From contig JAYPJF010000002.1 in assembly GCA_038128225.1 (NCBI GenBank), positions 39,451 to 103,450 of the forward strand: a stretch of DNA of 64,000 nucleotides, given 5' to 3'. Made by a program: the position numbers and the translations under genes. Shown here one piece after another: positions 31,248-51,371 of this stretch (the first letter of the stretch is position 1; every line of letters begins with the position of its first letter). The notes beneath the pieces are model-generated. The model worked only from the letters and a program-made list of their open reading frames with translations. It was not told the origin of the DNA and did no database searches. This DNA is from a bacterium. GTDB lineage: Bacteria > Patescibacteriota > Minisyncoccia > Phycocordibacterales > UBA2100.

Positions 31248-31760
31248 ATGAAGTTAGATATCGCGTGCGGACAAAATAAGCGTGAGGGATTTATGGGAGT
31301 CGATATTGCGCCAGGACCTGGCGTTGATTTTGTGTGGGACTTAGAACAATTTCCCTGGAAACCGTTCGCGGACAATTCAGTGGAAGAAGCGCATGTGTCG
31401 CATTATGCGGAACACACTAAAGACCTGATGTCATTTATGAACGAAGTGTGGCGAATTTGCGAAGATGGCGCAAAAGTGACAATTATCGGGCCGTACTACA
31501 CGTCTATTCGTGCGTGGCAGGATCCTACTCATACGCGCGCGTTGAGTGAGGCAACGTGGCAGTACTTTCAAAAACCGTGGCGAGAGGTGAATAAACTCGA
31601 CCATTACCCAATTAGGTGCGATTTCGAAGTTACAAACATGCTTCTGTTTTTTAATGAACCGTGGAATCAAAAATCGGAAGAGGCGCGCGCGTTTGCGGCG
31701 CAACACTACTTTAATGTAGTCTCCGATATACTGGTTGAACTGAAAGTCAAAAAAGCGTGA
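31248..31760 (+). CDS. Small class I SAM-dependent methyltransferase
   Basis: LDIACGQNKREGFMGVDI resembles MTase motif I, with a downstream acidic motif II-like DLEQFP. 170 aa. Confidence 0.4.
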   Translation: MKLDIACGQNKREGFMGVDIAPGPGVDFVWDLEQFPWKPFADNSVEEAHVSHYAEHTKDLMSFMNEVWRICEDGAKVTIIGPYYTSIRAWQDPTHTRALSEATWQYFQKPWREVNKLDHYPIRCDFEVTNMLLFFNEPWNQKSEEARAFAAQHYFNVVSDILVELKVKKA

Positions 31761-31772
31761 TACCCTTACGCT

Positions 31773-32219
31773 GTGTCGCCTCGAATAATTCATATCGGAG
31801 CATTATGCGCGGCACTCCTCGCCTCTGGTGCGGCGTTTCTTTATCTGCACCCGTTCGGATCGGAATCAGTTGTGTATGAGCGCATCGCATCTATTCCTGC
31901 GGCGCCGACGTTGCCACCGTCACCGCTTATGACCTATCCAGATCCTGATACCTACCAGCAGTTCGTGTTTGCTGCGCGCGCTGAGGCGGTGGTCGATATA
32001 ACGTGTGAGGATGCCTACGCGACGGTTCTGATCTATCCGCGCGACGTTGATTATCGGAAAAATCCCACGGGCGCAAAACACAACATCGCGTATCTGTGTG
32101 AAGAAAAAGGGGATACAGCGTTGTCGATTGATCTCCATGGCAAACCATTTACCGTGGGCGAGACCTACTACATTGTTCGCGCGCACCAAGGTAGCGGTGA
32201 ATGGTATAATCCCTATTAA
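31773..32219 (+). CDS. Hypothetical secreted protein (148 aa)
   Basis: Signal peptide (MSPRIIHIGALCAALLASGAAFLY), then a Pro-rich stretch. Confidence 0.4.
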   Translation: MSPRIIHIGALCAALLASGAAFLYLHPFGSESVVYERIASIPAAPTLPPSPLMTYPDPDTYQQFVFAARAEAVVDITCEDAYATVLIYPRDVDYRKNPTGAKHNIAYLCEEKGDTALSIDLHGKPFTVGETYYIVRAHQGSGEWYNPY

Positions 32220-32221
32220 GT

Positions 32222-32611
32222 ATGTGGCACTGGGTACAGTCATTCGTTTGGATATTTATTTTCGTGATGGTTTTTGGTGTCTTTGTGCTGTGGGGGCCTG
32301 CGCTAGGGCCGTTTCTATCTCTTCACACCGCGCCGTATACGCATGATGTATATGGAGTGTACTTAGAAAGTGGTCACGTGTTCTATGGAGAAATCAGATC
32401 AGTAGGATGGCACTCATTAGTGCTCGAAAATGTCCACTCGTTCCAGAATGTTACCGTGGGCGAAACTTCGACAAGTAATTTCCAGGCACAAAAAGATAAT
32501 CCGCTCACGCGGCCTGAAAACTGGTTGGTGATCGAACGAGACGCGATTCTTTTTTACGAGAAACTCACTCCTGCTGCAAAAATAATGTCGCTTATTCGTG
32601 GGGAATCATGA
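32222..32611 (+). CDS. Hypothetical membrane-anchored protein (129 aa)
   Basis: N-terminal TM helix. 4-nt overlap with the next gene. Confidence 0.4.
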   Translation: MWHWVQSFVWIFIFVMVFGVFVLWGPALGPFLSLHTAPYTHDVYGVYLESGHVFYGEIRSVGWHSLVLENVHSFQNVTVGETSTSNFQAQKDNPLTRPENWLVIERDAILFYEKLTPAAKIMSLIRGES

Positions 32612-34218
32612 ACTATGTAGTCGGTTTTATACTCGCAGGGTGCGTAGTGCCAACGATTGTGTTTGGATTCACCGCAACATCAACAAATTTTCACGTAAAT
32701 CAGGCAATTGTTTCGATCGGCGGCGGAAACCCCACAAGCTCAGTAAGTACATCGACCAACTTCCAGCTTTTTGGCGCTGGCGGGCAAACAGGCACGGGGA
32801 CGTCAACAATCGGTTCGTCATTTACGTTGTACGGTGGCTTTCTGCGCTCGATGTTCAAAAGTGTTCGTCCAACGTATACGCTCGAGCATTTTCATTGGCG
32901 CAATGATGATGGCACGGAAACATCAGCGACCTCGGGAACGTTGGGTGTGCAAGATACGGCAACGTCGTCGGTGCCAAAATCGGCAGCAAAACGATTGCGC
33001 ATTGCAGTTTCAAACGAAGGTGGGACTCAGGCAAACTACAGTGCTACCCAGTTTCGACTTGAGTACGGCCTTAAATCAACAACGTGTGGAGCGATAAGCT
33101 CGTGGAGTGATGTTGGTGCCGGTGCAGGGGATTGGGATATGTCAGATTCGAGCAATGTAACCAATGGAGGAAATACAACCAATATCGCGCTAGGTAGTGG
33201 AGGCGTCGGTGACGAGAACAAATACTTTATTGGAGATGGAGGTGTTCGCGATACCGCAAGCGAAACGAGCGCACAATTTGTTGAGAGTCACTCGTTTTAT
33301 GAAATCGAATATTCCATTCAGGCGCTCGCTGCTGCAACCGACAGTGGTACATATTGTTTTCGAGTGACCGCATCGGGTACCGATACGCTCTTTGTGTATG
33401 ACGTATACCCTGAAGCAACTCTTGCGGCAGGAGCGGGAACGCGGCCGATTGCTTCTGCGGTTTCGATTGACTCCGGTGCTGCCGCGGTGACACTCACCGA
33501 AAACACGATAAAAAACGTATCGTGCGTAGGCACGGTAACTGATACTGACGAATTTGCTGACATCACTTCGGTAACTGCAGATTTGTATCGAACTTCGGTG
33601 GGAGTCGGCGGGGGAGAGGATGACAATAACTACTACCAACTCGCAGGAGATGCGGAATGTGTTCCTTCAGGGGGCTCTGGAAACTCTGAAACATATACGT
33701 GTACATTTGCCGTGCAATATTTTGCCGACCCGACCGATACAGGTTCTCCAAATGCGAGTGACACATGGACGTGCACGATGACTCCTTCTGACGGCGTGGG
33801 AGCAGGAACTGCCGCGTCAGACACAATCGAAATGAATTCTCTCATGGCGCTCACGGTGACTGCGACGATTGCGTACGGAAGCGTGAATGCAAATGCCGAC
33901 ACGGGGAGTGTGAACCAAACGACAACGGTCACTAATACCGGCAATCGCGACATGGATCCAGAACTTTCAGGCGTCACCATGGCGGACGGAGGGAACTCCA
34001 TCGCCGTTGGTCAACAAAAGTACGCGGACGCTGCATTTACCTACACATCCGGAGGTGTCGCGCTTTCTACTACGCCGACAGCGATCAATGTAACTTTGCC
34101 TCAGCGGACCGGAGGAGCAATTAGCGACGATGTACTCTGGGGTCTTGGAGTTCCTAACGGTACACCGATCGGAAGTTACACAGGAACAAATACATTTACC
34201 GCAGTAGCGGGGTTGTAG
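32608..34218 (+). CDS. Thr/Gly-rich secreted surface protein, paralogue A (536 aa)
   Basis: N-terminal hydrophobic anchor. Shares with the 34273 gene the domain signatures TLTENT..., (I)A(Y/F)G(S/T)V(N/S)ANADTG..NQ..T.TNTGN, and a C-terminal (W)G(L/I)..PNG...G.YTG.NTFTAVA(G/D) motif. Confidence 0.55.
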   Translation: MNYVVGFILAGCVVPTIVFGFTATSTNFHVNQAIVSIGGGNPTSSVSTSTNFQLFGAGGQTGTGTSTIGSSFTLYGGFLRSMFKSVRPTYTLEHFHWRNDDGTETSATSGTLGVQDTATSSVPKSAAKRLRIAVSNEGGTQANYSATQFRLEYGLKSTTCGAISSWSDVGAGAGDWDMSDSSNVTNGGNTTNIALGSGGVGDENKYFIGDGGVRDTASETSAQFVESHSFYEIEYSIQALAAATDSGTYCFRVTASGTDTLFVYDVYPEATLAAGAGTRPIASAVSIDSGAAAVTLTENTIKNVSCVGTVTDTDEFADITSVTADLYRTSVGVGGGEDDNNYYQLAGDAECVPSGGSGNSETYTCTFAVQYFADPTDTGSPNASDTWTCTMTPSDGVGAGTAASDTIEMNSLMALTVTATIAYGSVNANADTGSVNQTTTVTNTGNRDMDPELSGVTMADGGNSIAVGQQKYADAAFTYTSGGVALSTTPTAINVTLPQRTGGAISDDVLWGLGVPNGTPIGSYTGTNTFTAVAGL

Positions 34219-34272
34219 GTGTGGATAACTACAGAGAGCGGCGACGCTTCACTATATACTTGATGAGTAACT

Positions 34273-35244
34273 ATGATGCGCCGTGCACGATCGCTCAACT
34301 TCAACGCGTGGACAATTTCCGCGGTAGTTTTTGCAGCAGGCGTTTTGGTCTCTGCAACTATCGTGCTCGCGGATACTGCATCAACTTCGGTTACGGTAGG
34401 TAACTCATCTCCTACCGTGAGTGCTGTGTCGATGAATGGCGGCACAAACATTACTCTTACCGAAAACACGTTTGTGAATGCCACAACAACGTTTACGGTA
34501 ACTGATGGGAACGGATGCAGTACGATTTCAAGTGTCTCGGCGCAGTTTGCCTTTGCTTCAACGAGCGCGGCGCTCTACGGAGCCAATTGTTCCTACAATG
34601 CGCAAGTGTGTTATTTCCCAACACTCTGTGCAGCAACAACGACAGGAAATACATGCACTGGTGGTTCTGATACTTCAGTACAGTATGATTGTGGCTACAA
34701 AATTTGGTATCCTGCGCGACCCACCGACGGCTCCTCCCCGGGTCTTTCGAGTGCGCAGTGGTACGTCTCAGCAACCGCGACGGACGCAAGCGCAGCAACA
34801 GGAAATGCAACAAATACCGGCGAAACCATTGAGGTTGTTACTTTGAATGCACTTAATGTGAGCGGATCCATTGGCTTTGGAACCGTCTCCGCAAACGCAG
34901 ACACTGGCGGCACGAATCAAAGCGTCACCCACACCAATACTGGAAATACCGCGATTGATAATCAGGTGTCTGGTGACGTAATGTGTACTGACTACTCGAC
35001 GTGTGTTGGTGGTGTACTGCAGCCATCGCAGCAGAAGTTTGGATTGAGTGACGTAACGTACGCTTCACTCACGAGTACACTCGCTGCAACCACATCGCCT
35101 GCATCAATTGAATTTGATCTGGCGACTTCCTCAGCAACCACCACTGCAATCACTGATTTGTCATATTGGGGTATTGCGATTCCAAACGGTCAGACCACTG
35201 GCGCGTATACGGGACAAAACACTTTTACCGCGGTTGCTGACTAG
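34273..35244 (+). CDS. Thr/Gly-rich secreted surface protein, paralogue B (323 aa)
   Basis: Signal peptide, the same motif set as paralogue A, and the C-terminal ...IPNGQTTGAYTGQNTFTAVAD. Confidence 0.55.
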   Translation: MMRRARSLNFNAWTISAVVFAAGVLVSATIVLADTASTSVTVGNSSPTVSAVSMNGGTNITLTENTFVNATTTFTVTDGNGCSTISSVSAQFAFASTSAALYGANCSYNAQVCYFPTLCAATTTGNTCTGGSDTSVQYDCGYKIWYPARPTDGSSPGLSSAQWYVSATATDASAATGNATNTGETIEVVTLNALNVSGSIGFGTVSANADTGGTNQSVTHTNTGNTAIDNQVSGDVMCTDYSTCVGGVLQPSQQKFGLSDVTYASLTSTLAATTSPASIEFDLATSSATTTAITDLSYWGIAIPNGQTTGAYTGQNTFTAVAD

Positions 35245-35276
35245 GTTTCCTGTCGCGCTCGTGTACACTTAAGCGC

Positions 35277-36167
35277 ATGTATCGAGGCTTACTTTTTTCA
35301 CTGGTACTGGTAGCCTTAACTGTCCCTTGGATTGCGGATGCCGGATTTGGTGTTTCGCCCCCACTTGTTAAAGAAGACCGCCTTGTTCCAGGTATTACGC
35401 TTGAGCGAATTGTGTACTTGGTCCAGGGTAGCCCTGAGCGCGATCTGCAAGTTGAGTTGTTTGTTGAATCTGATATCAGCGACTGGATACGCTTTCCGCA
35501 AGGTAACCCGATCACGATTCCAAAAGGTGTGCAACAATTTCCTCTTGCTGTGCAGGTGAGTGTGCCCGCTGACGCGCAGCTCGGTGTATATAAAGGCTCT
35601 ATTCGCATCACCACGGTACCTGAAAAAGCTGACGAGGCAGGTGAAGTAGCGATCGCGATTGGCGGATTGGTTGAACTGGATCTCACGGTTGGTAATGACG
35701 TTATTGTCGATTTGAAAGTGCGTACGATTAAGATTTTGAATGTGAAGGAAGGCGATGACGCTGAAGCAGATGTCACTATCGTTAATAGCGGCAACGCACC
35801 GGCTGCACCAGACGCGGCGACGTTTGAATTATTCAACAAATTTGGTGAGCTACGACTAGCGTATGGTGAGACGCAAGAGTTCAAGCTTGTGCCCGCGTTT
35901 GGCGAGCTCGTTGAACATCTTTCGTTTCCTATCGATATTCATCTTGCTCCTGGAGAATACTGGGGCCACGTTAAAGTGTACAAAGATAAGGAGTTAATTG
36001 GAGAGTTGCGTACGGTGTTTAATGTTACGGAAAAAACCTTTTTGGAAAAATACCAGTGGTATCTCGTGGGTGCATTGGGGCTTCTTGCATCCATACTCCT
36101 CCTTGTATTTGTTGTCATGATGCGGCGCCAGAACAGACCCGTATACTACGAGCAACCTATACGATGA
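35277..36167 (+). CDS. Secreted protein with a C-terminal TM anchor (architecture reminiscent of DUF916/DUF3324-type cell-surface proteins, low confidence)
   Basis: Signal peptide, a GFGVSPPLV... beta-rich ectodomain, then a C-terminal TM helix (WYLVGALGLLASILLLVFVVMM) plus a basic tail. Confidence 0.45.
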   Translation: MYRGLLFSLVLVALTVPWIADAGFGVSPPLVKEDRLVPGITLERIVYLVQGSPERDLQVELFVESDISDWIRFPQGNPITIPKGVQQFPLAVQVSVPADAQLGVYKGSIRITTVPEKADEAGEVAIAIGGLVELDLTVGNDVIVDLKVRTIKILNVKEGDDAEADVTIVNSGNAPAAPDAATFELFNKFGELRLAYGETQEFKLVPAFGELVEHLSFPIDIHLAPGEYWGHVKVYKDKELIGELRTVFNVTEKTFLEKYQWYLVGALGLLASILLLVFVVMMRRQNRPVYYEQPIR

Positions 36168-36170
36168 AAC

Positions 36171-37265
36171 ATGCGCGTTGCAGCATTGCTACTTATTGTG
36201 TGCTTCATAAGCACGTGGGTGTATGCGGACACGGCGTCGATAACGGTAACGGTGATTATCGCACAGTGTACTGACGGGTCTGATAATGATGGCGATACGC
36301 TGATTGACTACCCTTCTGACCCAGGGTGTTCTTCGACTGGGGATAATGATGAATCAAACGCTGCCCCGCACTGCTCGGACACTCTGGATAATGATTCTGA
36401 CGGTCTTACTGATTACCCCGCAGATCCTGGGTGCTATAAAACCAGTTATATTTCCGAGGCAATGGCTGCGGGGGGCGGCGGTGGTGGCGGGGGGGGTGGA
36501 GGAGGCGGAGGTGGGGTGGTATCGAGTGGGTCAGCGGTGACTCTAACCGGGTACGCCTATCCAAATAGCGTTGTGCACGTATACCAAGACGGACGACGGG
36601 TATTAGAAGTGTATGCGGGTTCCGATGCGCGCTTTACTGCAACGATACAAAATCTTTCTGCGGGTATTTATACGTTTGGTGTAAGTGCGCAAGATGAAGA
36701 CGGAAGACGTTCGGCGCTGTTTAATATTCCACTCTCCGTCTCTGTTTCATCACAAACAAGTATTGGCGGCACCGTACTCGCACCAACGATAACATCGGAT
36801 TACGAAAAAATTCGTCACGGTGACACTTTGACGCTTTTTGGAGCAACGATTCCGAACGCGCAAGTGACTGTTGAAGTCAATTCTGAGACACAGCTCTTTG
36901 TTCGCGCTGAATCAAATGCTGATGGCGCGTATCTCGCGAGATTTGATACGTCACAGATCGAGCGCGGAGATCACGTCGCGCGCGCGAAAGCCGAGTCTGA
37001 AACTCTTTCGATTCCGTATGGGACGGCGATAGGGTTTGTTGTTGGCGATGTAAACGTGCCGCGTGTTGAGGCGTCTGGTTCGGTGCGTAAAGGCGATCTC
37101 ACAAGTGATGGAAAAGTTGATATTCGAGATTTTTCAGTTGCTGCGTACTGGTATCGACGAACACTTACCGCCGAGTTTGCGCTCATCGAGTCTGAAAGGC
37201 TCAATGGCGATGGAAAAATTGATCTGAAAGATTTTAGTATCATGGCGTATTATTGGACCTCATAA
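36171..37265 (+). CDS. Secreted dockerin-domain protein with two Cys/Asp-rich Ca-binding-like repeats and a Gly15 linker
   Basis: Signal peptide. Two copies of C(T/S)DxxDNDxDxLxDYPxDPGC (thrombospondin-type-3-like DxDxDG). GGGGGGGGGGGGGGG linker. Beta-rich domain. C-terminal duplicated dockerin-like segments GDLTSDGKVDIRDFSVAAYWY / LNGDGKIDLKDFSIMAYYW. Confidence 0.55.
   Translation: MRVAALLLIVCFISTWVYADTASITVTVIIAQCTDGSDNDGDTLIDYPSDPGCSSTGDNDESNAAPHCSDTLDNDSDGLTDYPADPGCYKTSYISEAMAAGGGGGGGGGGGGGGGVVSSGSAVTLTGYAYPNSVVHVYQDGRRVLEVYAGSDARFTATIQNLSAGIYTFGVSAQDEDGRRSALFNIPLSVSVSSQTSIGGTVLAPTITSDYEKIRHGDTLTLFGATIPNAQVTVEVNSETQLFVRAESNADGAYLARFDTSQIERGDHVARAKAESETLSIPYGTAIGFVVGDVNVPRVEASGSVRKGDLTSDGKVDIRDFSVAAYWYRRTLTAEFALIESERLNGDGKIDLKDFSIMAYYWTS
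36468..36525 (+). repeat. Poly-glycine codon tract containing G6 and G8 homopolymers
   Basis: GCGGGGGGCGGCGGTGGTGGCGGGGGGGGTGGAGGAGGCGGAGGTGGGG, with G8 at 36489-36496. Confidence 0.8.
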
Positions 37266-38113
37266 CTATGCGTATCTGTTTTCGACCATTTCTCTTCGCC
37301 GCGTTAATAGCTGTGTTTGTTATAGTCCCAGACCAGGCGATTGCCGCATCAGTTGAAGCACGTGTCGCTCGAGACGGGGCCCTGTGGAGAGTCACATATA
37401 TTTTGCACGCAGAGGGGGCTGCGTTAAACGTACTTGCGGGGACGTTTCCTTTTTCTTCTGATCTAAAAGTAGAGCGCATAGAAACTGGACGTAGTATCAT
37501 CCAGCTTTGGGTTACTTCTCCCAAAAATGACCGTGCTGGCGTAACGTTTGAAGGAGTTGTTCCGGGCGGATTTTTGGGGAGCGCAATCCCGTCCCGAGGA
37601 TTGACTGGCTCGGGAGAAATAATGACTGCCGTCTTTTCATCAGAAAAGGATCATGGGATATTGGCGGGTGGTTCTATTAGAGGGTATCTTCACGATGGCA
37701 GTGGGACGGAGGTTTCGCTTCCGTTTGCTGAAGTCACGTTTGATGCACGAACTCCTGAAGAAAACGTTTCTGATGACCGTACACCTCCCGCACGTATTTT
37801 TTTTGAAATTCTAAACGAGCCTTCAATGCTCGTGCTTGACGCTCAAGATAAAGAAACAGGCATCGATCGCTACGAGGTGAAGATAGGGCGCACTGAATGG
37901 AAGACTGTCGAGCCGCCGGTGCCGCTTTCGCAGGCGGAGCGAGATGCGCGCATTGCCGTGCGTGCATTTGATAACGCCGGAAATTTTCGTGAAGCCCTTG
38001 TTCAGGAATCATCTCCGAACGAAACATACAAGCGCATCTTAGGTATTATTGGCATACTCGTGATCGTCCTCGTACTGGCGGCGGTATATATGCGCGTGAT
38101 GCACAGGGAGTAG
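37253..38113 (+). CDS. Hypothetical secreted protein with a C-terminal TM anchor (286 aa)
   Basis: Signal peptide (FLFAALIAVFVIVPDQAIA), a beta-rich ectodomain, and a C-terminal TM helix (ILGIIGILVIVLVLAAVYM). Confidence 0.45.
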   Translation: MDLITMRICFRPFLFAALIAVFVIVPDQAIAASVEARVARDGALWRVTYILHAEGAALNVLAGTFPFSSDLKVERIETGRSIIQLWVTSPKNDRAGVTFEGVVPGGFLGSAIPSRGLTGSGEIMTAVFSSEKDHGILAGGSIRGYLHDGSGTEVSLPFAEVTFDARTPEENVSDDRTPPARIFFEILNEPSMLVLDAQDKETGIDRYEVKIGRTEWKTVEPPVPLSQAERDARIAVRAFDNAGNFREALVQESSPNETYKRILGIIGILVIVLVLAAVYMRVMHRE

Positions 38114-38137
38114 TTTCAGAACTTCTCTATACCGTCT

Positions 38138-39115
38138 ATGATACGTTTTATGAAGCACGCATTATTCTCTGGGATGCTCGGTGCGCTCTACTTCTGTGTA
38201 GGGGCGCTACCGTTAGTTGCAGATGCTGCAACACTCCAATTTGGTGGCGCAACGCAGGGGACTGTTGGAAGCACGCTCACGATTCCGATTACCGTGAGCG
38301 CAGCACAAGGAGAATCGGTTAACGCGGTTTCTGCAACAGTGCGTTTTCCCGCTGCGCTACTTGAGGCGACCTCAATGTCTTCTTCGGGGAGCATCGTAAA
38401 TTTTTGGGTGCAGCAACCAAGTTTTTCAGCCTCAGCGGGGACAGCAGAACTTGAGGGGGTAATACTCAATCCAGGTTTTAGCTCTCAGCAAGGAATAGTT
38501 GCAACACTGACGTTTCGAGTTCGCGCTGCTGGAGCAGCAACACTCTCATTTTCTTCGGCTTCAGTTTTAGCGAATGATGGGGCGGGGAGTAACATACTCA
38601 CCGCGTCTCCGTCAAAAACACTCACCCTTACTGCTCCTGAGGTAAAGAAAGAAGAGCAAAAGAAGATCGAGCCGACGACAGGAAGCGCTGAAGAGAAAAA
38701 ACCAATCGAGGTTGTGCCGCCACCACTACGTGAAGCAACAAGCGCTCTTGAGATTTCGCCGATACAGGACGATGTCCCCGCGACGTCGACTTACCAGACG
38801 CATCCGGCACCGTCGTTCGGGTATGCACTTCCTTTAGCAACGGGGCTCGCGATCCTTGGCTGGCTCATAATACTTGCACGGTTCCTTTTCGATCGGAGAG
38901 CTAAGGTGCCGCCTTTGAAACGTATCGCTGCAGCCGACCGCGCACTCCACCAAGCGCTTAAAGACCTACGATCTGACCTCTCGCACGAACTGAAACATTT
39001 GCGCGCAAAAGAGGGCGCAGGCACGCTAACGGTCGAGGAACGGCATATTTTGAAGCGTTTTGCAGGAGCGATGAACGAATTTGATAAAATTGACTCCGAC
39101 TCGGAGCGAGCGTAA
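38138..39115 (+). CDS. Membrane-anchored cohesin-like domain protein with a cytoplasmic coiled-coil tail
   Basis: Signal peptide. ATLQFGGATQGTVGSTLTIPITVSAAQGESVNAVSATVRFPAALLEATS...GIVATLTFRVRAAGAATLSFSSASVLANDGAG matches the cohesin beta-sandwich pattern (GxT(V/L)xIPVx(V/F)S...VNAxxxx(V/I)xF(D/P)..LE...). Then a Pro/Glu linker, a TM helix (LATGLAILGWLIILARFLF), and a basic/coiled tail. Confidence 0.55.
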   Translation: MIRFMKHALFSGMLGALYFCVGALPLVADAATLQFGGATQGTVGSTLTIPITVSAAQGESVNAVSATVRFPAALLEATSMSSSGSIVNFWVQQPSFSASAGTAELEGVILNPGFSSQQGIVATLTFRVRAAGAATLSFSSASVLANDGAGSNILTASPSKTLTLTAPEVKKEEQKKIEPTTGSAEEKKPIEVVPPPLREATSALEISPIQDDVPATSTYQTHPAPSFGYALPLATGLAILGWLIILARFLFDRRAKVPPLKRIAAADRALHQALKDLRSDLSHELKHLRAKEGAGTLTVEERHILKRFAGAMNEFDKIDSDSERA

Positions 39116-39150
39116 GAAGACCACTTGCTTTTGGAAGAAGAGCGAGTAGA

Positions 39151-39528
39151 GTGCCGTACATGAAATACAAATACACAGCCATCGTCGGGGCGATTCTTAT
39201 TCTTGCGGGATTGTTTGTATGGGGTTCTTTTGGGCGTGCTGCACAACCACAAGCAGAAGAGCCAGTGCGCCACCTGGTCGAGGTATCAGGTAACATTGTT
39301 CATGGTGAGCCGCAGAGAACTAAGCATGGGTGGCGTTTTAAAGAAAATGGCAACGTATTTGAGCTCGCTTTTTCTTCTCAAAGCATATGTGCAGGAAAAA
39401 CATCTTCTGGTATTTGTAACCCCACAAAGTTTATTGATGGACGTGCGGCGGATCTAGAAGGAGAACTTGTTGATGGGCTTTTGCGTGTGTACAAGCTTAC
39501 ATTTACTGAACCAGTAACGACTCAATAA
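39151..39528 (+). CDS. Hypothetical membrane-anchored small protein (125 aa)
   Basis: N-terminal TM helix. Two Cys residues in the ectodomain. Confidence 0.4.
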   Translation: MPYMKYKYTAIVGAILILAGLFVWGSFGRAAQPQAEEPVRHLVEVSGNIVHGEPQRTKHGWRFKENGNVFELAFSSQSICAGKTSSGICNPTKFIDGRAADLEGELVDGLLRVYKLTFTEPVTTQ

Positions 39529-39529
39529 T

Positions 39530-39970
39530 ATGCGCCTCCGCGTCGTTTTGAGCATTCTCGCGGCACTACTCATATGTACGGGAGTGTACTTGTTGCTTCT
39601 GAAACCTGATCACGATGGTGTGCAAAAGACCTCTTCTGTCATCATGCCGCCGACGGTTACGTGGCTTTTTGCAGAAAGTGCTGCCGCTGGTCCGGAAACT
39701 CCACCCAAAACGAAAGTGATTATCCGAACAGAACGAGGCCTTAAAGATGTAGGCATGTATGACGGAACATGTTTTGATGTTGCAGGCTCGAACTGGGAAT
39801 TAGTCAGTGGAGAAATATCCGCCGTGATTTGTTATTGGGCAGGAGGCGGCACGGAAATTGGTGTGTTTGAAGAAAATGGAGAGTATGTGGTGAAAGAAGG
39901 GGTTATTGAGGAGCCCACCGAAGAAACCGACGGCATTCGAGGTGTATTTAAGACACTCTTTGTGCTTTAA
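39530..39970 (+). CDS. Hypothetical membrane-anchored small protein (146 aa)
   Basis: N-terminal TM helix and an acidic C-terminus. Confidence 0.4.
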   Translation: MRLRVVLSILAALLICTGVYLLLLKPDHDGVQKTSSVIMPPTVTWLFAESAAAGPETPPKTKVIIRTERGLKDVGMYDGTCFDVAGSNWELVSGEISAVICYWAGGGTEIGVFEENGEYVVKEGVIEEPTEETDGIRGVFKTLFVL

Positions 39971-39997
39971 AGGGAATGGGTAATTGAACTGAAAACA

Positions 39998-40024
39998 AAA
40001 ACACCCAGCAGCGCTGGGTGTTTT
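39998..40024. terminator. Bidirectional hairpin terminator between the surface operon (+) and the LTD gene (-)
   Basis: AAAACACCCAGC-AGC-GCTGGGTGTTTT followed by T. Confidence 0.5.
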
Positions 40025-40037
40025 TGGTACGAGTCGT

Positions 40038-41717
40038 TTATAAACCTGGTGTCGGTGTTTCTCGGTCTACCCAATCACTTGCGGTATTGGTGTCAGTAGT
40101 TACTGACGATCGAGCAATCGAGTGACCGTCTGCGACTGACGCGGTTGATGGATCAAACGCTGTTGTATTTGACCCCCACGAAACTGCGTCAACCACAGTG
40201 TCTCCGCTTTTTAGAAACACTCCGTCGCTCGAATTACTCAAACCGTTGCCGATTGAGCCGCCCAGAACAACTACCGGTACACCCCCGGGGAAACTCCAGA
40301 AGTTCGCGGTTGTGCTGGTGCCGGTGACAATGAGGTATCCTCCTGCTGCGATCGTTGTTGTTGCAGGGAAGGCATCAGTTGAAGTAGCGTCCATGATAGA
40401 CCATCCGCTTATGTCGACAGGGGAAGCTGTGGGGTTATAAAGTTCCACCCACTCATTTCCGGGGTCGTCACCGTGAGCCGTGTCAGGATTATAGTACGCC
40501 TCACTGATAATGACATGAGCAACTTGCGGCGCGGGTTCAAGTACCGTCACCACGACGCTGTCCGCCGCTTCACCGCCCAATCCAGAGCACGTGAGCGTGT
40601 ATGTGCTTGTAGTCGCTGGACTTGCTGCAATCGAACTGTTGAGCGGAACTGCGCCACTCCATGCTCCTGAGCCTGTGCAGGTTGTTGCCTGTGTTGACGC
40701 CCACGAAAGCGTCGTAGTTCCGCCACGGGTAATAGTTGTTGGGTTGGCCGTCAAATCCACCGTCGGCATTGGGTGTGGACTTACGGTCACGGTTTCCGAT
40801 TCAGATACTGAACCTCCCGCGCCCGTACAGGTGAGCGTGTACGTTGTTGTCGTTGCAGGGGTAACTACCATGGAGCCTGAGGTGTCTTTTGACCCCGACC
40901 AGCCATCTGAGGCGGTGCACGCGGTGGTGTTTGTTGAACTCCAGCTGATAAGCGAGCTTGTGCCTACAAGGATACTCGCCGGGTTAACGGTAAGCGAAAG
41001 AGTTGGTGTGGGCGCTGGTGTAACCGTAACCGTTGTTGTGCCCGAAACCGATCCTCCGTTTCCTGTGCACGTAAGAACATACTGCGCGGTTGTGGTAGGA
41101 GAGACGCCCTCGCTGCCTGAAGTTGTTTTTAACCCACTCCAATTGCCTGATGCGGTGCAGCCGTTTGCGTTTGCAGCAGTCCATGAGAGTGTCGCGCTGT
41201 TGCCGGACACTATCGTTGTTGGGCTAGCGCCGAAGGTAAGAGTTGGCTGCGAGGGCGGCGCCGCGTTTACGGTAACCGTTGCGGAATCGCTTGTGGATCC
41301 AGTCGCATTACTGCAGGTGAGTGTGTATGTAGTCGTTGTTGCTGGGGAGACACTCAGAGAGCCATTTTTTTCTTGAGCGCCACTCCAACCACCGGAAGCC
41401 GTACACGTTTCGGCGTTTGCACTTGACCAGGTAAGTAACGATGAGCTGCCCACAGTAATCGACTCTGGGTTACTTACGTGAGATACGGTAGGTACAGGCA
41501 GCGGCGGAGTCTCACGACACATCCATAACTGCACGTGACTCGGGAACCGTTGTTTCAGCGGTTTAAGACCTTCGCACACTTGATCGTAAATATGGTTACG
41601 CAGATCATCGTATCGAAGTGGCGAATGATACGCGGAGCCAGCCTCAAGGACACCGACTCCTGCCGATAAAAACACAAGAGTTAATAAACCAAGCCAAGAA
41701 GCACGAAGTAATGCCAT
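40038..41717 (-). CDS. Secreted protein with 4 tandem Ig-like repeats and a C-terminal lamin-tail domain (LTD)
   Basis: Signal peptide. Four repeats of ~90 aa (T(L/V)T.NP..I..G.S..L.W.S.NA..CTASG.WSG.K..SGS..VSPATTTTYTLTC.G.GGS.S.S.TVTV). C-terminal HVIISEAYYNPDTAHGDDPGNEWVELYNPTASPVDISGW...SNSSDGVFLKSGDTVVDAVSWG is the LTD signature. Confidence 0.7.
   Translation of the reverse strand: MALLRASWLGLLTLVFLSAGVGVLEAGSAYHSPLRYDDLRNHIYDQVCEGLKPLKQRFPSHVQLWMCRETPPLPVPTVSHVSNPESITVGSSSLLTWSSANAETCTASGGWSGAQEKNGSLSVSPATTTTYTLTCSNATGSTSDSATVTVNAAPPSQPTLTFGASPTTIVSGNSATLSWTAANANGCTASGNWSGLKTTSGSEGVSPTTTAQYVLTCTGNGGSVSGTTTVTVTPAPTPTLSLTVNPASILVGTSSLISWSSTNTTACTASDGWSGSKDTSGSMVVTPATTTTYTLTCTGAGGSVSESETVTVSPHPMPTVDLTANPTTITRGGTTTLSWASTQATTCTGSGAWSGAVPLNSSIAASPATTSTYTLTCSGLGGEAADSVVVTVLEPAPQVAHVIISEAYYNPDTAHGDDPGNEWVELYNPTASPVDISGWSIMDATSTDAFPATTTIAAGGYLIVTGTSTTANFWSFPGGVPVVVLGGSIGNGLSNSSDGVFLKSGDTVVDAVSWGSNTTAFDPSTASVADGHSIARSSVTTDTNTASDWVDRETPTPGL
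40400..41495 (-). repeat. Tandem ~270-bp coding repeats (4 copies) encoding the Ig-like modules
   Basis: Visible protein-level periodicity, and recurrent DNA blocks (e.g. GTGAGCGTGTA...GTTGTCGTTGCAGG, ACGGTAACCGTTG...). Confidence 0.65.
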
Positions 41718-41827
41718 ACGGGGACTTGCCTAGCTTAATAATAGGTCGTTTAAGACCAGAAACTCTATTGGTAAGTATCGCACGAGTATATGAAAACAAC
41801 GTGTGGACATGGGTTATGATGTAAAAC

Positions 41828-42451
41828 ATGAAGCTTGTCTACTTCGTGCGCCATGGACAAAGCGAGGCAAATGTCGGGGCGGTATTTCAAGGAGCCGAAT
41901 CGCCGCTTACGGCGACTGGAAGAAAACAAGCGTCTCGGATTGCGGCACGCGTGGCGAGACTGCCTGTCGAAGTGGTGATTGTAAGTCCTCTGAAGCGAGC
42001 ACAGGAAACCGCAGAATGTATTAAAGCACATACTACGGCCCCGATCATTACAAGCCCGTTATTCCAGGAACGAAAGAAACCTCGTGGTCTTGAAGGGAAG
42101 TCGCTCCATGACCCGAAAGCGCAGCATGTATACCACGCGTGGGTGCGAACATTGTTTGCACGCAACCGAGAGCTTCACAGTGGCGAAAATTACGAACGCT
42201 TAGTAAAGCGAGCTCAACAGGCGCTGCGTTTTCTCGAGAAACGCTCTGAGCAGCATATCGCTGTGGTGACCCACGGTTTCTTTATGCGAATACTCGCTGC
42301 GATAGTGATACATGGGAAGGCAAACCCCGACATTGTGCGTGTGTTTGCCAAAGGGCTTGAGATGGAAAACACAGGTTTAACCGTATTTCGCTTCACTCCT
42401 GAACGCGGGTGGCAGCTATGGATTTGGAATGACCATTCACACCTCGGCTGA
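41828..42451 (+). CDS. Histidine phosphatase family protein (phosphoglycerate mutase-like)
   Basis: VRHGQSEAN catalytic RHG motif near the N-terminus, and a downstream HG (VTHGFFMR). Confidence 0.75.
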   Translation: MKLVYFVRHGQSEANVGAVFQGAESPLTATGRKQASRIAARVARLPVEVVIVSPLKRAQETAECIKAHTTAPIITSPLFQERKKPRGLEGKSLHDPKAQHVYHAWVRTLFARNRELHSGENYERLVKRAQQALRFLEKRSEQHIAVVTHGFFMRILAAIVIHGKANPDIVRVFAKGLEMENTGLTVFRFTPERGWQLWIWNDHSHLG

Positions 42452-42538
42452 GTTGTACACAGAACCTGCTGGCAGTGGGGTGTGAGTGCGTTAGCATTAA
42501 CCCAAGGTCGATTTTATGCCTTTTCTAAAGGAAAAAGT

Positions 42539-45598: not shown

Positions 45599-46435
45599 AT
45601 GCGTATCGTAATCGGCGTTCTCTGTATAGGGTGTATCGTTTTCTCGTTTTTTGCCGTTGAGTCGTTGCGACGTGATCTTGAGTGGGAAACCACAATGGTG
45701 CGTACACAACACGCAGAGGAGCCGAGTGTCGTTACTGGAGTTACTACAGAAACAGACGCACGGATCCCAAAAAGTCTCGGTGTTCAAGAAGTGATCGTTG
45801 ACGAGGAGCATAAAACTTCAGAAAACACATCGCAGACACCCATAATGCAACAAGCCGAAAAGGGCGAATCATTTGCGAGCGCGTGGAAACATGCAAAAGC
45901 GACCATGTTTTGGGTTGGCGAGGATGCAACTTCTGACAATGGGTTTATTCACAATAGCGCGAGTGCGTGGGATGAAATCTGGGAGACGCATTTTGGGGGC
46001 GTTGATGACCCAGAGACCCGTTGTGGGTATCATCCGTGCGGGTTCACGCCAAAACAAAACCCTTTCTACGTTGCGCTTCCTTATAATGATTTTGATGATG
46101 AGGGGAATCGGAAGGCAAACGCGTCACGCGTGCCGTGGTTTGATGATAGGTCATCGGGATCATTGCTTGAAAATCGATGGGTTGAGGTACGCCGAAATGG
46201 CGTCTCGTGTTTTGGTCAGTGGCAGGATGTTGGACCGTTTGAGGAAGACGACGTTGAGTATGTGTTCGGTGATGCGGCTGCGCCGAAAAATACCACCATT
46301 GTTGGGGCGGGCATCGATCTCTCCCCGGCGCTTTCAGATTGCCTAAGCCTTGGCGGTTTGGGCGAGGTGGAATGGAGGCATGTGGCCACAGAGCGTGTAG
46401 TTCGTGGACCTTGGACCGACATCGTCACCCATTAA
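45599..46435 (+). CDS. Hypothetical secreted protein (278 aa from the internal ATG)
   Basis: The start at 45599 gives the signal/TM MRIVIGVLCIGCIVFSFFAV. Divergent from the ECF sigma gene, so possibly part of its regulon. Confidence 0.45.
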   Translation: MRIVIGVLCIGCIVFSFFAVESLRRDLEWETTMVRTQHAEEPSVVTGVTTETDARIPKSLGVQEVIVDEEHKTSENTSQTPIMQQAEKGESFASAWKHAKATMFWVGEDATSDNGFIHNSASAWDEIWETHFGGVDDPETRCGYHPCGFTPKQNPFYVALPYNDFDDEGNRKANASRVPWFDDRSSGSLLENRWVEVRRNGVSCFGQWQDVGPFEEDDVEYVFGDAAAPKNTTIVGAGIDLSPALSDCLSLGGLGEVEWRHVATERVVRGPWTDIVTH

Positions 46436-48572
46436 GGGTAAATGGTGCGATGCGGAGTCGCATGAGCGCGACATGGCAATCACCGTGGCGCTTTTGTACA
46501 CCCCAATGGAAGAGCGAGCCAGTGAGTGCAAGCCACACACTTTTGAGTACGATCGCGGCGATAAGGTATCGATAAAAAAGACGCTGTAACAAGAGTGTTG
46601 TGAACAACAGTCGGTAATGAGGGTGTTTTTCATCGCGTAGCGCAACTGCAGCAATGAGCATGTCGAAAAGTGTATAAGCCAGAAATGGGATGAGTATCAG
46701 CGATATATAAGACTGAGTAACAATTCCAATAATGAGCGCGATATCCAAAAGCGGGAGACACATCGGAAGGAGGACATTGAAGGTTATGGTGTATGGAAGT
46801 ACTAGAAAACCTAGCCACGGCCGAGAAGTCGAGGCAAACCAAGGGAGATACTTCCATACACACTGCACGGTTCCATACATCCAGCGCATCCGCTGCTTGA
46901 AAAATGCGCGAACCGTATGGGGCGTTTCAGTAAACGCATACGCGCGCGCATCATAACGAACCGAATATCCTTCCGAAAGCAGCTTGAATGTAAGATCCTG
47001 GTCTTCCACCACCGTGTCGGTCGAGTATCCTCCAAGACGCTCGATTACGTCCTTGCGCCATGCGCCGAGGGCTCCGGGCACGATATGAACTGCGTTTCCA
47101 AGTGCAAAAACCGTTTTATCAATGTTCTGTCCTTGTGTGTACTCAAGATACTGGAACGCACTCAAAAGGGTTTTGATTGCAGCAGGGTAGATTTTTCCGG
47201 ATACGGCGCCAACATGAGGGTCGCTGAAATGCGTCACCAGGTGTGTGATTGCGTCAGGGGCAACGATTGTATCGGCATCAATGCAGACGACGATGTTGTG
47301 TTGCGCATGGGGAAGTGCAAATGAAAGCGCTTTTGCTTTCGCCCCCTCGTTTTCTTTCTGAAGTAGTCGCAAGTGCGAGCCGATGAATGGAATTAGTGCA
47401 AGTACCCGAGCGCTGGTTTCATCGGTCGAACCGTCGTCGACGACAATTATTTCGTCGCCAGGGCGGATCGCTTTCGCTGCCGAGTGAATGGTCGCCTCGA
47501 TGTTGAGTGCCTCGTTGAAGGCTGGGATGAGCACTGACACCGGCTCGGTATGTGCTTCAAGGGGGGCGCGGCGAGCTCGTGCCCATGGCACATAGAGAAA
47601 ACGTAGAAGGAGAACCGTCCACATACGGGTAAGTCCGAGAATCACCAAAATACCGATAATACCCCAAAGAAGGGATGATCCTTGTGTGTATGCAACAGCG
47701 GCCCCAGCAAGAAGCGCATCCCGCCCAATGCCAAGTGGTGCGGCTGGCATGACATCGGCTTTAGTTAGACCGAGTTGCTGAGAAATTGGCACGAAGGTGT
47801 ATCCTTCAGCTTTCATTGTTGCAATGAATCCAGGGAGCGCCTCAAGTGTCGTTCCGCTTCCAGCCTCTTCGTGAAGAAGCACTACGTTATGTTTGCGATT
47901 TGATTGATTGTACACACCTTCTATAAGGCGTCGCTCGAGGCGCGCTTTCCCAGTTTTCGGGTCCGACTCCAACCAATCAAGTGAATCGATTGTGGTACCA
48001 ATAACAAGAAAACCCGCTTTCTCTGCCCAGCGGAACGCCTCTGCGTTTTGGGTGCTGCCATCGAGTTCCCATGATTCAAAGTCAATCAAAAAAGGAGGGC
48101 GGTATAGATATGATGTATGCCCAGTAATATTCCTCAATACTCGGTCTGCGGCACTTAATTCCGCACGGAGCCGGCGTTCATTGGCATGCACCTCACGAGA
48201 GTGGGTAAATGTGTGGTTCCCGATTTCAAAAAGAGGCGAAGTAGCAACACGGCGAACGATATCCGGATGCTTCACCATATACTCTCCTATGAAGAAAAAA
48301 GTCGCAGGCACGTGTTCGCGTTCGAGAAGGTCGAGAAGCTGTGGCGTATACACTTCGTGTGGGCCGTCATCAAAAGATAACGAGATCCATTTATCGGAGT
48401 TTTCCGCAGTAGTATTTGCGGTGAGTTGTGGCGCAACATGAGTATCGCGCACCACCGCTTCCATTGAATAGGGAATTGAAACTAAAAACAGTATGGTGAT
48501 TCCGATGACCGCACACGCACTAAGGCCGTACACAAACCATTTTCTCCATCCGTGACGGTCATAAAAAATCAT
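46425..48572 (-). CDS. Fusion protein: polysaccharide deacetylase (NodB/CE4) plus processive family-2 glycosyltransferase (PgaB/PgaC- or IcaB/IcaA-like)
   Basis: N-terminal TM. The CE4 motifs ISLSFDDGP and FFFIGEYMVKHPDIVRRV...GNHTFTH. TM segments. The GT2 motifs VLIPAFNEA, VVDDGSTDETS, and QxxRW (QRMRWMYG). A C-terminal TM bundle. Confidence 0.8.
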   Translation of the reverse strand: MIFYDRHGWRKWFVYGLSACAVIGITILFLVSIPYSMEAVVRDTHVAPQLTANTTAENSDKWISLSFDDGPHEVYTPQLLDLLEREHVPATFFFIGEYMVKHPDIVRRVATSPLFEIGNHTFTHSREVHANERRLRAELSAADRVLRNITGHTSYLYRPPFLIDFESWELDGSTQNAEAFRWAEKAGFLVIGTTIDSLDWLESDPKTGKARLERRLIEGVYNQSNRKHNVVLLHEEAGSGTTLEALPGFIATMKAEGYTFVPISQQLGLTKADVMPAAPLGIGRDALLAGAAVAYTQGSSLLWGIIGILVILGLTRMWTVLLLRFLYVPWARARRAPLEAHTEPVSVLIPAFNEALNIEATIHSAAKAIRPGDEIIVVDDGSTDETSARVLALIPFIGSHLRLLQKENEGAKAKALSFALPHAQHNIVVCIDADTIVAPDAITHLVTHFSDPHVGAVSGKIYPAAIKTLLSAFQYLEYTQGQNIDKTVFALGNAVHIVPGALGAWRKDVIERLGGYSTDTVVEDQDLTFKLLSEGYSVRYDARAYAFTETPHTVRAFFKQRMRWMYGTVQCVWKYLPWFASTSRPWLGFLVLPYTITFNVLLPMCLPLLDIALIIGIVTQSYISLILIPFLAYTLFDMLIAAVALRDEKHPHYRLLFTTLLLQRLFYRYLIAAIVLKSVWLALTGSLFHWGVQKRHGDCHVALMRLRIAPFTLNG

Positions 48573-50132: not shown

Positions 50133-51371
50133 ATGCAGCTTTCTGAAATACTTACTGCACGGGGTTTTGTGCACCAGTATTCAACTAAAACACTTGGTGA
50201 AATTACCGACGGTGACGCACGTGTTGTCTATTTGGGAGTTGATCCAACGGCGGATTCAATACATGTGGGAAACCTTGCGGGGTTTATGATGCTCCGTCAT
50301 TTTGTTGAACATGGGCACAGGATAGTTCTTTTGATCGGCGGAGGAACAGGAATGATTGGAGACCCAAAACCCGATGTTGAACGCCCGCTCACGCCACCTG
50401 AAGAAGTTGCGGGGCGAGCTGAAAAAATAAAAAAACAAGCGCAACGCCTTTTTGGGGGAGTGGAAGTTGAAGTGGTCAACAATCATGATTGGCTCTCGAA
50501 ACTTGACCTCATTTCATTTCTACGCGACATCGGCAAGCACTTTACCGTGAACGCGCTCATGAAAAAGGACGCAATCGCGGCGCGCCTAAAAAGTGAAGAA
50601 GGGATCTCGTACACGGAGTTCGCGTACCCACTTTTGCAGGCATACGATTTTTGGCACCTCTTTAAAGAAAAATCATGCACCGTACAAATTGGCGGATCAG
50701 ATCAGTGGGGGAATATCACTGCGGGGGTTGAGCTTATCAGACGAAAAGAAAACGCCGCGGCGTTTGCGCTCACCCTGCCTCTTATTGTGGATAAAAGTGG
50801 AAAAAAGTTTGGAAAAAGTGAAGGAAATGCCGTGTGGCTGGATGCGACAAAAACAACCCCATTTGCTTTCTATCAGTTTTGGCTCCAAGTTGATGACGAC
50901 CAAGTAGAGGCACTCTTGAAACAATTTACATTGCTTTCGCTTAGCGACATTGAACATATGATTGCCGAGCATGTAAAAGATCCAGGAAAGCGCGCAGCTC
51001 AGAAAGCTCTTGCGCATGCAGTTACTGAGCTCGTGCACGGCAAACCAGAAGCGGATGCAATTGCGCGCGCGTCGGAAATTTTGTATAGTACGGACACAAT
51101 TCAAGTTACCCCTGTGGAGCGAGAAGTGTTGCTCGCACAAGCGCCTAAAACACATGTTGCAGAAGGGGATTCAATTGTCGACGTGCTTGTTGCAGTAGGA
51201 TTTGCAACTTCGAAACGAGAAGCACGCGAGTTTCTTGATAATGGCAGCGTGACCTTGCAAGGAAAAAAAATAGGCAGTGAGTACGTGCTTACCGATAAGG
51301 ACTTTGTTGAAGAGTTTGCGATTTTGCGGCGTGGCAAACGCAACTCGTGTCTACTTACAACGGTGTTATGA
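50133..51371 (+). CDS. tyrS: Tyrosyl-tRNA synthetase
   Basis: HIGN (HIGH-class motif), KFGKS (KMSKS), and a C-terminal S4-like domain. 412 aa. Confidence 0.9.
   Translation: MQLSEILTARGFVHQYSTKTLGEITDGDARVVYLGVDPTADSIHVGNLAGFMMLRHFVEHGHRIVLLIGGGTGMIGDPKPDVERPLTPPEEVAGRAEKIKKQAQRLFGGVEVEVVNNHDWLSKLDLISFLRDIGKHFTVNALMKKDAIAARLKSEEGISYTEFAYPLLQAYDFWHLFKEKSCTVQIGGSDQWGNITAGVELIRRKENAAAFALTLPLIVDKSGKKFGKSEGNAVWLDATKTTPFAFYQFWLQVDDDQVEALLKQFTLLSLSDIEHMIAEHVKDPGKRAAQKALAHAVTELVHGKPEADAIARASEILYSTDTIQVTPVEREVLLAQAPKTHVAEGDSIVDVLVAVGFATSKREAREFLDNGSVTLQGKKIGSEYVLTDKDFVEEFAILRRGKRNSCLLTTVL

Follow-up and report, generated by a model that had tools for sequence, protein, structure and literature searches.

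The gene at 40038-41717 of the window (the whole 64,000-nt stretch of DNA that was analysed) raises the question of what a protein that joins four tandem repeats to a lamin-tail domain (LTD) might do, and of whether the locus is, as the earlier note held, an unstable member of the surface island beside it. The gene is complete and can be divided into an export signal, a Cys-helix region, four Ig-like repeats and the LTD:

40038..41717, minus strand: complete gene of the LTD protein, 559 aa plus stop (list of open reading frames)
41631..41717, minus strand: putative Sec-type signal peptide, about aa 1-29 (sequence reading)
41493..41630, minus strand: conserved, mildly basic helix/loop with two Cys (C48, C67), aa 30-75 (homologue alignment and AF2 helix)
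41247..41492, minus strand: Ig-like repeat 1, aa 76-157, 82 aa (repeat alignment; AF2 pLDDT about 90-93)
41007..41246, minus strand: Ig-like repeat 2, aa 158-237, 80 aa (repeat alignment, AF2)
40767..41006, minus strand: Ig-like repeat 3, aa 238-317, 80 aa (repeat alignment, AF2)
40527..40766, minus strand: Ig-like repeat 4, aa 318-397, 80 aa (repeat alignment, AF2)
40041..40532, minus strand: lamin-tail domain, aa 396-559 (PF00932, domain-only AF2 model and Foldseek)
40173-40532, minus strand: PF00932 match within the LTD, aa 396-515 (Pfam HMM)

The exact 559-aa protein is found in a public collection (P0001, NCBI+Logan), and a 45%-identical relative, MBL8157953.1, has already been named 'lamin tail domain-containing protein' at NCBI. 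The protein belongs to a known class of LTD-containing secreted repeat proteins, here from an uncultivated small-genome bacterium. A search of genome contigs returned no self or close match (best identity 45-52%); for this gene, the searched collection thus contains no close relative of the source species. By its TyrRS, whose nearest named relatives belong to Candidatus Kaiserbacteria (58-61%), the organism can be placed roughly, as a Kaiserbacteria-like member of the Patescibacteria. The whole protein is acidic (pI 4.4, against 8.0 for aa 30-75) and rich in Ser+Thr (31%), and its ten Cys make up five conserved pairs. Pfam found the LTD as its sole domain and NCBIfam gave 0 hits, while PDB sequence searches with a full-length profile and a repeat profile gave marginal matches only (9ncf_S, E 0.05; titin, E 0.03). 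Across the window, Rfam and tRNA searches detected a single tRNA-Gln, far from this locus.

The C-terminal domain, which the earlier note had called a clear LTD, was confirmed as such: PF00932 matches with 63.4 bits (gathering cutoff 34.3, E=3e-17) over profile positions 2-108 of 109, and the domain carries a NEWVELYN-type core motif. Modelled on its own with AF2 it reaches a pLDDT of 95.7 and a pTM of 0.91, and in a Foldseek search of the PDB the top 11 matches of this model are Ig-folds of lamin A/C or B1, all with probability 1.00 (target-normalised TM 0.62-0.69 for the four best lamin chains). The role of bacterial LTDs has been stated as not elucidated (PMC6085458); a literature search for the domain in papers on Saccharibacteria/Patescibacteria gave no mention of 'lamin tail' among the top 20 papers, and one CPR paper names an LTD gene merely as a landmark.

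By analogy with lamin tails, which bind chromatin, and with LTDs that accompany extracellular nucleases, the domain could bind DNA, the protein serving to capture it outside the cell, either for competence or to let a bacterium that cannot make nucleotides scavenge them. ExeM indeed contains an LTD, as does a nuclease-domain protein from DNA-degradation loci of Izemoplasmatales MAGs (PMC6085458, PMC8289736), and deletion of the ExeM LTD slowed DNA degradation in vitro, although the domain was dispensable in vivo for extracellular DNA degradation (PMC6085458). Against this role, the LTD described here has a net charge of -15, with only 3 Lys+Arg, and is acidic in 20/20 homologues (-11 to -24); moreover, no nuclease or OB domain, whether EEP or YhcR/OB, was matched in the protein by Pfam or NCBIfam, and no competence genes are adjacent to the gene. 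DNA capture is, on these grounds, quite unlikely.

The region preceding the LTD contains four repeats in tandem, each with a pair of Cys, as had been proposed, although their period is 82/80/80/80 aa and not about 90 aa. Every repeat carries its Cys pair in the pattern C[TS][AG]S..WSG ... Y.LTC, and their similarity is far above chance even when the S/T-rich composition is allowed for (z=17.6-28 in local alignments, relative to shuffled sequences). The Ig-like fold suggested for them also held, since AF2 models the repeats as all-beta units of 7-8 strands each, with a pLDDT of 92-96, and the best Foldseek matches of the full model are multi-Ig arrays (probability 1.00).

The repeats had, however, been described as near-identical, and from this high DNA identity the locus was expected to be prone to recombination. 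Both claims are refuted by the low identity between the copies (44-60% in protein and 50-57% in in-register DNA), by the length of the longest exact DNA word that they have in common (8-11 nt) and by Tandem Repeats Finder, which reported no arrays in 39500-42500. A repeat search of the locus recovered only imperfect matches of 12-33 nt at a spacing of 240/480 nt, and in columns with the same amino acid the same codon is used in just 29-42%. Identity between repeats is equal within and between proteins (about 50%), and no signal of positional orthology was found when each repeat was compared with the repeat of the same rank in homologues, all values being about 45-56%. We read the array as an ancient modular stalk that gains or loses entire domains on a long evolutionary time scale, and not as a recombination hot spot.

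The number of repeats does vary, as seen in 49 LTD-type homologues with three (n=8), four (n=22), five (n=14) or six (n=5) of them, and the pth-adjacent positional orthologues of Saccharibacteria-type genomes have four or five at the same syntenic site. This variation, together with the greater likeness of the internal repeats in some relatives (up to 74-77% protein identity), could point to a contingency-type locus, at which recombination between near-identical repeats would alter their number and so vary the cell surface rapidly. Close copies of the gene tell otherwise: in two other samples (L001 and L002) it shows 0 mismatches over 1680 nt, with flanks that differ by 0.06-0.6% in these independent samples, and cluster member P0121 carries 4 substitutions and is likewise 559 aa long. 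Among these few copies, which are the scope of the close-strain comparison, there is no polymorphism in repeat number; the comparison that the earlier note had called for thus supports variation among distant relatives and not among close ones. Given the established minimal processing segments, the words common to the repeats, of 11 nt at most, are too short for homologous recombination between them. A contingency locus is extremely improbable here, and the variation in repeat number is slow evolutionary gain and loss of domains and not recombinational instability.

The 80-aa two-Cys module is not restricted to this gene. It was found in 23,499 representative (cluster) proteins, with as many as 47 matched stretches per array and joined to many different partner domains, with a spread that includes Patescibacteria, Gammaproteobacteria, Acidobacteriota and others. 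Taken singly, the four repeats of the LTD protein matched no Pfam family at E<0.01, and among 45 diverse copies of the repeat 2/45 weakly matched K319L-like_PKD (PF22352, E about 0.008). Judged by sequence, the module appears to lie outside the curated Ig-like Pfam families (PKD, Big_x, fn3, DUF5979 and others). Because neither Pfam nor NCBIfam has a model for it, many large surface proteins remain unannotated.

The genes around the locus were considered next to the claim of a functional island. One further feature separates the LTD gene from the convergent gene at 39530-39970:

39996..40026, both strands: strong palindromic hairpin between an A-run and a T-run, probable bidirectional intrinsic terminator (terminator scan and folding)

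This hairpin has 14 pairs, with a dG of -24.8 kcal/mol on the plus strand and -23.5 kcal/mol on the minus strand (z -4.4 and -5.5; 0/200 shuffles fold as well), and was called on the minus strand by the terminator scan, in agreement with the proposal that a bidirectional terminator is common to the two convergent genes. The convergent operon (31248-39970) includes genes for a cohesin-domain protein and for a Big_6 protein that bears a dockerin-like motif, and the LTD protein might therefore be part of a cohesin/dockerin surface assembly, docking on the products of the operon or working with them. Besides the adjacency and the common terminator, such an association is favoured by two related genomes that lack both the LTD gene and the operon at the syntenic site, and by L087 (Saccharibacteria), in which a dockerin/unknown/cohesin trio lies 1.7 kb from a protein with the same repeats. 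That protein, however, has no LTD, and L087 is the only one of 87 other loci, searched with the operon proteins, where homologues of the trio occur near a repeat protein (1/87). In the LTD protein itself Pfam detected neither a dockerin nor a cohesin, and convergent genes are separate transcripts, not co-transcribed. Five LTD-type relatives adjoin pth in a housekeeping block (ftsZ, ftsA, lepB) with no cohesin/dockerin operon there, and one further relative is located between ftsH and recG. Membership in this assembly is thus unlikely, and what is left of the island is adjacency and a common terminator, a link that is not conserved in relatives.

The idea of an island with two defined borders was also rejected. 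Synteny with L090 and L091 begins at 41828 and runs rightwards, and the left-flank genes of these two loci (CYTH, Lactamase_B) are absent from the window, which indicates a synteny breakpoint at the LTD locus and not a delimited insertion. The neighbourhood gives no functional hint, being formed by housekeeping genes in relatives and by a synteny breakpoint here.

The N-terminus, as read from the sequence, has the make-up of a signal peptide, with a basic n-region, a hydrophobic core (WLGLLTLVFLSAGVGVL) and small residues at -3 and -1. Cleavage would probably take place after G-S-A, and the homologues have A-x-A at the aligned site (20 aligned); aa 1-34 are modelled with a pLDDT below 50. The region that follows contains a predicted helix (aa 34-57, AF2) in which R46, C48 and R57 are kept by at least 90% of the 20 aligned homologues, and C67, beyond the helix, is invariant. 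The protein is probably extracellular. No LPXTG or TM segment is present at the C-terminus (...DWVDRETPTPGL) and no lipobox was seen, aa 1-47 being devoid of any Cys, so the protein, for which no anchor was found, might simply be released.

The reading that we favour, with a probability of about 0.6, is that of a Sec-exported extracellular rod, made of a disulfide-stabilised stalk of four Ig domains and an acidic LTD head for contact with an envelope or cell surface. After the signal peptide, a short basic helix/loop with its conserved Cys pair would lead into four Ig-like beta-sandwich domains, each with one probable disulfide, that would form a rigid, fixed-length stalk. The strongly acidic C-terminal LTD would be the part likeliest to make a specific contact, and its target would presumably be a cell-envelope component or a partner cell's surface, not DNA. 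We infer in this way the cleavage, the disulfides, the extracellular location, the division of labour between stalk and head, and the class of ligand.

Alternatively, the protein could be a structural element of the cell's own envelope, tethered by its LTD or by the basic N-terminal helix to the wall, S-layer or membrane, with the Ig array acting as a spacer or coat and not as an adhesin. Such a role would suit the conserved place of the gene beside ftsZ, ftsA, lepB and pth in Saccharibacteria-type relatives, and LTDs have been proposed to direct proteins to membrane-associated structures (Mans et al. 2004, as cited in PMC6085458). The protein has no recognisable anchor, so tethering of this kind would need to be non-covalent, and Pfam and NCBIfam scans detected neither an S-layer homology, LysM or SH3 domain nor any other domain for wall binding in it. 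The evidence called upon is the same as for the extracellular rod and does not separate own-envelope from partner-cell targets; an own-envelope role is regarded as fairly unlikely.

The LTD locus itself matters little, and the instability claimed for it is absent. In Saccharibacteria-type genomes, on the other hand, genes for the Ig-stalk plus LTD architecture have a conserved place next to housekeeping genes. Some Saccharibacteria are by now genetically tractable (PMC10633639), so the function of a bacterial LTD could in principle be tested there. A more speculative proposal, held to be fairly doubtful, is that the N-terminal Cys-helix, a variable number of 80-aa Ig domains and the acidic LTD form a conserved component of a surface organelle of Patescibacteria (mainly Saccharibacteria), encoded beside pth/ftsZ/ftsA in many genomes, in which the LTD would recognise the host envelope during episymbiosis and the stalk of three to six domains would be tuned to the envelope that is bridged. 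If this were true, the 80-aa module would be a major, still uncurated family of bacterial Ig-like domains.

Several known systems resemble the protein in part. K319L-like_PKD (PF22352) and DUF5979 (PF19407) give weak, sub-threshold or patchy matches to the repeat in some relatives and match 0/4 repeats of the 559-aa protein. ExeM of Shewanella oneidensis (LTD, YhcR/OB and EEP nuclease) is likewise exported with one LTD, although the LTD of ExeM sits at the N-terminus as an auxiliary of two nuclease-related domains, whereas here it is C-terminal in a protein with no catalytic domain. The bacterial secreted LTD proteins surveyed by Mans et al. (2004), as cited in PMC6085458, have in common with it an LTD and a secretion signal; here the LTD has no hydrolase, nuclease or sugar-binding domain as a partner and is preceded by four Ig-like modules. 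The best structural matches to the bacterial LTD are the tail Ig-folds of eukaryotic nuclear lamins (PDB 1ifr, 3gef, 3jt0), at 15-21% identity and with a length of about 115 aa against about 164 aa; unlike them, the bacterial domain is highly acidic and probably extracellular. For the whole model, the best Foldseek matches in the PDB are to GhpA, the grappling-hook protein of Aureispira (PDB 9flv, 9flu, 9flx; E 6e-14 to 3e-12, probability 1.00), a likeness at the level of the fold only (20-23% identity, global TM-score 0.20-0.30). GhpA is several thousand aa long, against 559 aa, and has a different terminal domain, but both proteins are built around an elongated tandem array of Ig-like beta-sandwiches.

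The LTD gene is an uninterrupted ORF (40038-41717, minus strand) that codes for a 559-aa protein, an exact match of which (P0001) is present in public collections, in NCBI and Logan assemblies, with a longest contig of 345 kb. The lamin-tail domain (LTD, PF00932) is the sole Pfam family in this protein, scoring 63.4 bits (E=3e-17) where 34.3 is the gathering score; an NCBIfam scan gave no match. Modelled alone with AlphaFold (residues 396-559, 46-sequence alignment), the LTD reached a pLDDT of 95.7 and a pTM of 0.91, and among solved structures it best resembles the human lamin A/C and lamin B1 Ig-folds (3gef, 3jt0, 1ifr; probability 1.00, target-normalised TM 0.62-0.69). The C-terminal LTD proposed in an earlier note is thus confirmed both by the profile match, above the gathering score, and by the fold of the model; HMM, fold and core motif all place the domain in this family, and a 45%-identical relative had already been named "lamin tail domain-containing protein" by NCBI. 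The LTD and the four repeats that precede it are located as follows.

41247-41492, minus strand: repeat 1, residues 76-157, 82 aa
41007-41246, minus strand: repeat 2, residues 158-237, 80 aa
40767-41006, minus strand: repeat 3, residues 238-317, 80 aa
40527-40766, minus strand: repeat 4, residues 318-397, 80 aa
Residues 396-515 of the same protein: PF00932 match, profile positions 2-108 of 109 (Pfam)

Every repeat contains a Cys pair (pattern C[TS][AG]S..WSG ... Y.LTC), and 25 columns are invariant across the four copies. The four tandem repeats are genuine despite their Ser/Thr-rich composition (35-42% Ser+Thr): local alignment scores between repeats lie 17.6-28 SD above shuffles. The earlier note had described near-identical units of ~90 aa: four tandem units with two Cys each do exist, with a period of 82/80/80/80 aa and not ~90, and near-identity has to be abandoned, because the repeats share 44-60% identity as protein and 50-57% as DNA (in register, as set by the protein alignment), and no exact DNA word longer than 8-11 nt is common to any two of them. 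The same codon is used at only 29-42% of the columns with the same amino acid. Tandem Repeats Finder reported no array in the repeat region and a seed-based repeat finder only imperfect matches of 12-33 nt. The repeats are thus old duplications, saturated at synonymous sites. The opposite strand of this region carries a Val-rich, 261-aa antisense ORF (40591-41376, plus strand), a mirror image of the Thr/Ser-rich repeats that is most likely not a gene.

Repeat number changes over evolution by whole domains: 49 LTD-bearing matches contain three (8 proteins), four (22), five (14) or six repeats (5), and among homologues linked to pth there are four in P0032, P0041, P0050 and P0083 and five in P0006. 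Within the species of the window no such variation was seen in the available copies (two other sequencing runs and one cluster variant). The gene shows 0 mismatches in 1680 nt in loci from the runs DRR685533 and SRR26337526, where the surrounding 20 kb are 99.44% and 99.94% identical, and the sole other member of its 90% cluster differs by four substitutions, with unchanged length. Recombinational instability of repeat number, expected earlier, is therefore refuted for this locus: inter-repeat DNA identity is low and the gene invariant, a combination that the earlier note itself took as contrary to it. Repeat-to-repeat identity is similar within proteins (mean 0.42-0.64) and between them (0.44-0.56), and this comparison gave no signal of positional orthology; such values fit an old family that would be held at the level tolerated by the fold, rather than concerted evolution.

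Downstream of the LTD gene, on the opposite strand, lies a tightly packed operon (~31248-39970, plus strand) in which most genes are unannotated. A similar gene trio was found in L087, a locus from a Saccharibacteria MAG.

36171-37265, plus strand: Big_6 protein with a Gly15 linker and a sub-threshold dockerin-type motif (Pfam)
38138-39115, plus strand: cohesin-domain protein (Pfam)
110-3494 of L087: cohesin/dockerin trio

The gene of an unannotated 286-aa protein stands between the first two (trio 36171-39115, plus strand). No Pfam family was found in the other scanned operon genes (31248-36167 and 39151-39970, plus strand; 536, 323, 296, 125 and 146 aa), and none is on record for three smaller operon ORFs (170, 148 and 129 aa). 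In the gap between the convergent genes lies a hairpin of 14 pairs (39996-40026) with A5 on one side and T5 on the other; its stability on the plus and minus strands (-24.8 and -23.5 kcal/mol; z -4.4 and -5.5) makes the postulated shared bidirectional terminator plausible. A functional island with the operon is unsupported: Pfam found no dockerin in the LTD protein, its relatives lie among housekeeping genes, and both gene and operon are absent at the syntenic point in L090 and L091, two loci from related genomes (TyrRS 67-68% identical) whose synteny with the window starts at 41828, with the histidine-phosphatase gene, and continues to the right. The left-flank genes of these loci (CYTH, metallo-beta-lactamase) occur nowhere in the whole 64-kb window; a delimited island was therefore rejected, and the LTD gene lies where synteny breaks off, at a rearrangement breakpoint. 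The dockerin/unknown/cohesin-like trio was found near a module-built protein in only one of 87 other loci searched, L087, where that protein has no LTD and is separated from the trio by a yceG gene. The recurrence of the trio in this Saccharibacteria MAG suggests that Patescibacteria have a conserved surface cassette of the cohesin-dockerin type.

Three further loci were observed. In L090 a gene with RVT_1 (reverse-transcriptase) and DnaG zinc-ribbon matches (3081-4310) occupies the place of the histidine phosphatase of the window and L091. A 715-aa polysaccharide deacetylase and family-2 glycosyltransferase fusion with weak chitin-synthase-like matches (46425-48572, minus strand) is inserted, with a 278-aa ORF, between a sigma-factor gene and a holin-like gene, and is absent there in L090 and L091. 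A full-length phosphoketolase (XFP) gene (21160-23568, plus strand) is of relevance to central carbon metabolism in this Patescibacteria genome.

The tyrosyl-tRNA synthetase (50133-51371) is closest to metagenomic proteins (65-69% identity) and, among named relatives, to Candidatus Kaiserbacteria (58-61%), so that the window is assigned to Patescibacteria/Parcubacteria. For the LTD protein, the nearest full-length relatives come from MAGs labelled Candidatus Saccharibacteria, with only 45-52% identity. Five LTD-type relatives share one neighbourhood, whole or as far as the available sequence reaches (trxB-like, ftsZ, ftsA, ybeY, S21, hisS, lepB and pth, then the LTD gene, facing a small ORF and an S1 protein gene); another lies between ftsH and recG. 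The small ORF (81-93 aa, no Pfam match; L003, L006, L007, L008 and L010) stands between the LTD gene and the S1-domain gene, in every case convergent with the former, and is the conserved partner of the LTD gene in Saccharibacteria-type relatives. The conserved pth-linked position of this Ig-stalk and LTD architecture in Saccharibacteria-type genomes is of some wider value.

At its N-terminus the LTD protein is hydrophobic and carries small residues at positions -3 and -1 (G-S-A|Y, against A-x-A in aligned homologues); it would be exported by Sec with cleavage of the signal peptide. The 46 residues after the signal peptide are mildly basic (pI 8.0), and AlphaFold predicts a helix at residues 34-57. 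The ten Cys of the protein fall into five conserved pairs. In 20 homologues the eight repeat Cys and C67 never vary, and conservation of C48 is at least 90%; C30 and C60 of the module likewise reach at least 90% in 45 diverse copies. A disulfide would lock each Ig-like unit, the four units probably building a stiff stalk, some four domains in length, that presents the LTD as a specific binding head, whose target may be either the envelope of the cell itself or a partner cell. According to one report (PMC6085458), no role has yet been established for bacterial LTDs, they have been proposed to direct proteins to membrane-associated structures, and the LTD of ExeM is dispensable in vivo and helps in vitro. 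The main functional rival is direct binding of DNA by the LTD, as suggested by LTD-nuclease fusions; it is disfavoured because the domain is strongly negative (net charge -15 with only 3 Lys+Arg; -11 to -24 in 20/20 homologues). The whole protein is also acidic (pI 4.4).

A four-unit profile, searched against 1.84 billion cluster representatives, matched 23,499 proteins at E<=1e-3 and 10,329 at E<=1e-10, with 47 module stretches in one protein of 4,314 aa. The 120 best full-length matches contain runs of 3-11 modules, and LTD, fasciclin, fn3, an apiosidase-like domain with Collagen_bind_2, and DUF5979 are among the partners. By genome title, the hosts are Patescibacteria, many Gammaproteobacteria (Steroidobacteraceae), Acidobacteriota, Gemmatimonadales and Planctomycetales. 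The module is a promiscuous stalk module, not peculiar to the LTD gene, and the size of this uncurated 80-aa family is itself of some wider value.

Compared with known systems, the LTD gene was rejected as a contingency locus and its product as an LTD nuclease, the defining feature of each having failed, as a cohesin/dockerin component, for want of a dockerin, and as a sortase substrate, since neither LPXTG nor a C-terminal TM segment was read in its sequence; a lipobox Cys is absent too. None of the four single repeats matched Pfam at E<0.01, K319L-like_PKD was touched by only 2/45 diverse module copies (E ~0.008) and profile searches of PDB sequences gave marginal matches only; the module lies outside every curated sequence family and within the Ig-like fold class. 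In the full-length AlphaFold model (mean pLDDT 85.1; repeats 92-96, signal-peptide region <50) each repeat is all-beta, with 7-8 strands. Foldseek against the PDB returned arrays of Ig-like domains, so that the description of the repeats as Ig-like holds at fold level: the top matches are three cryo-EM fragments of the Aureispira grappling-hook protein GhpA (E 6e-14 to 3e-12, 20-23% identity), followed by titin, contactins, RPTPs and macroglobulins.
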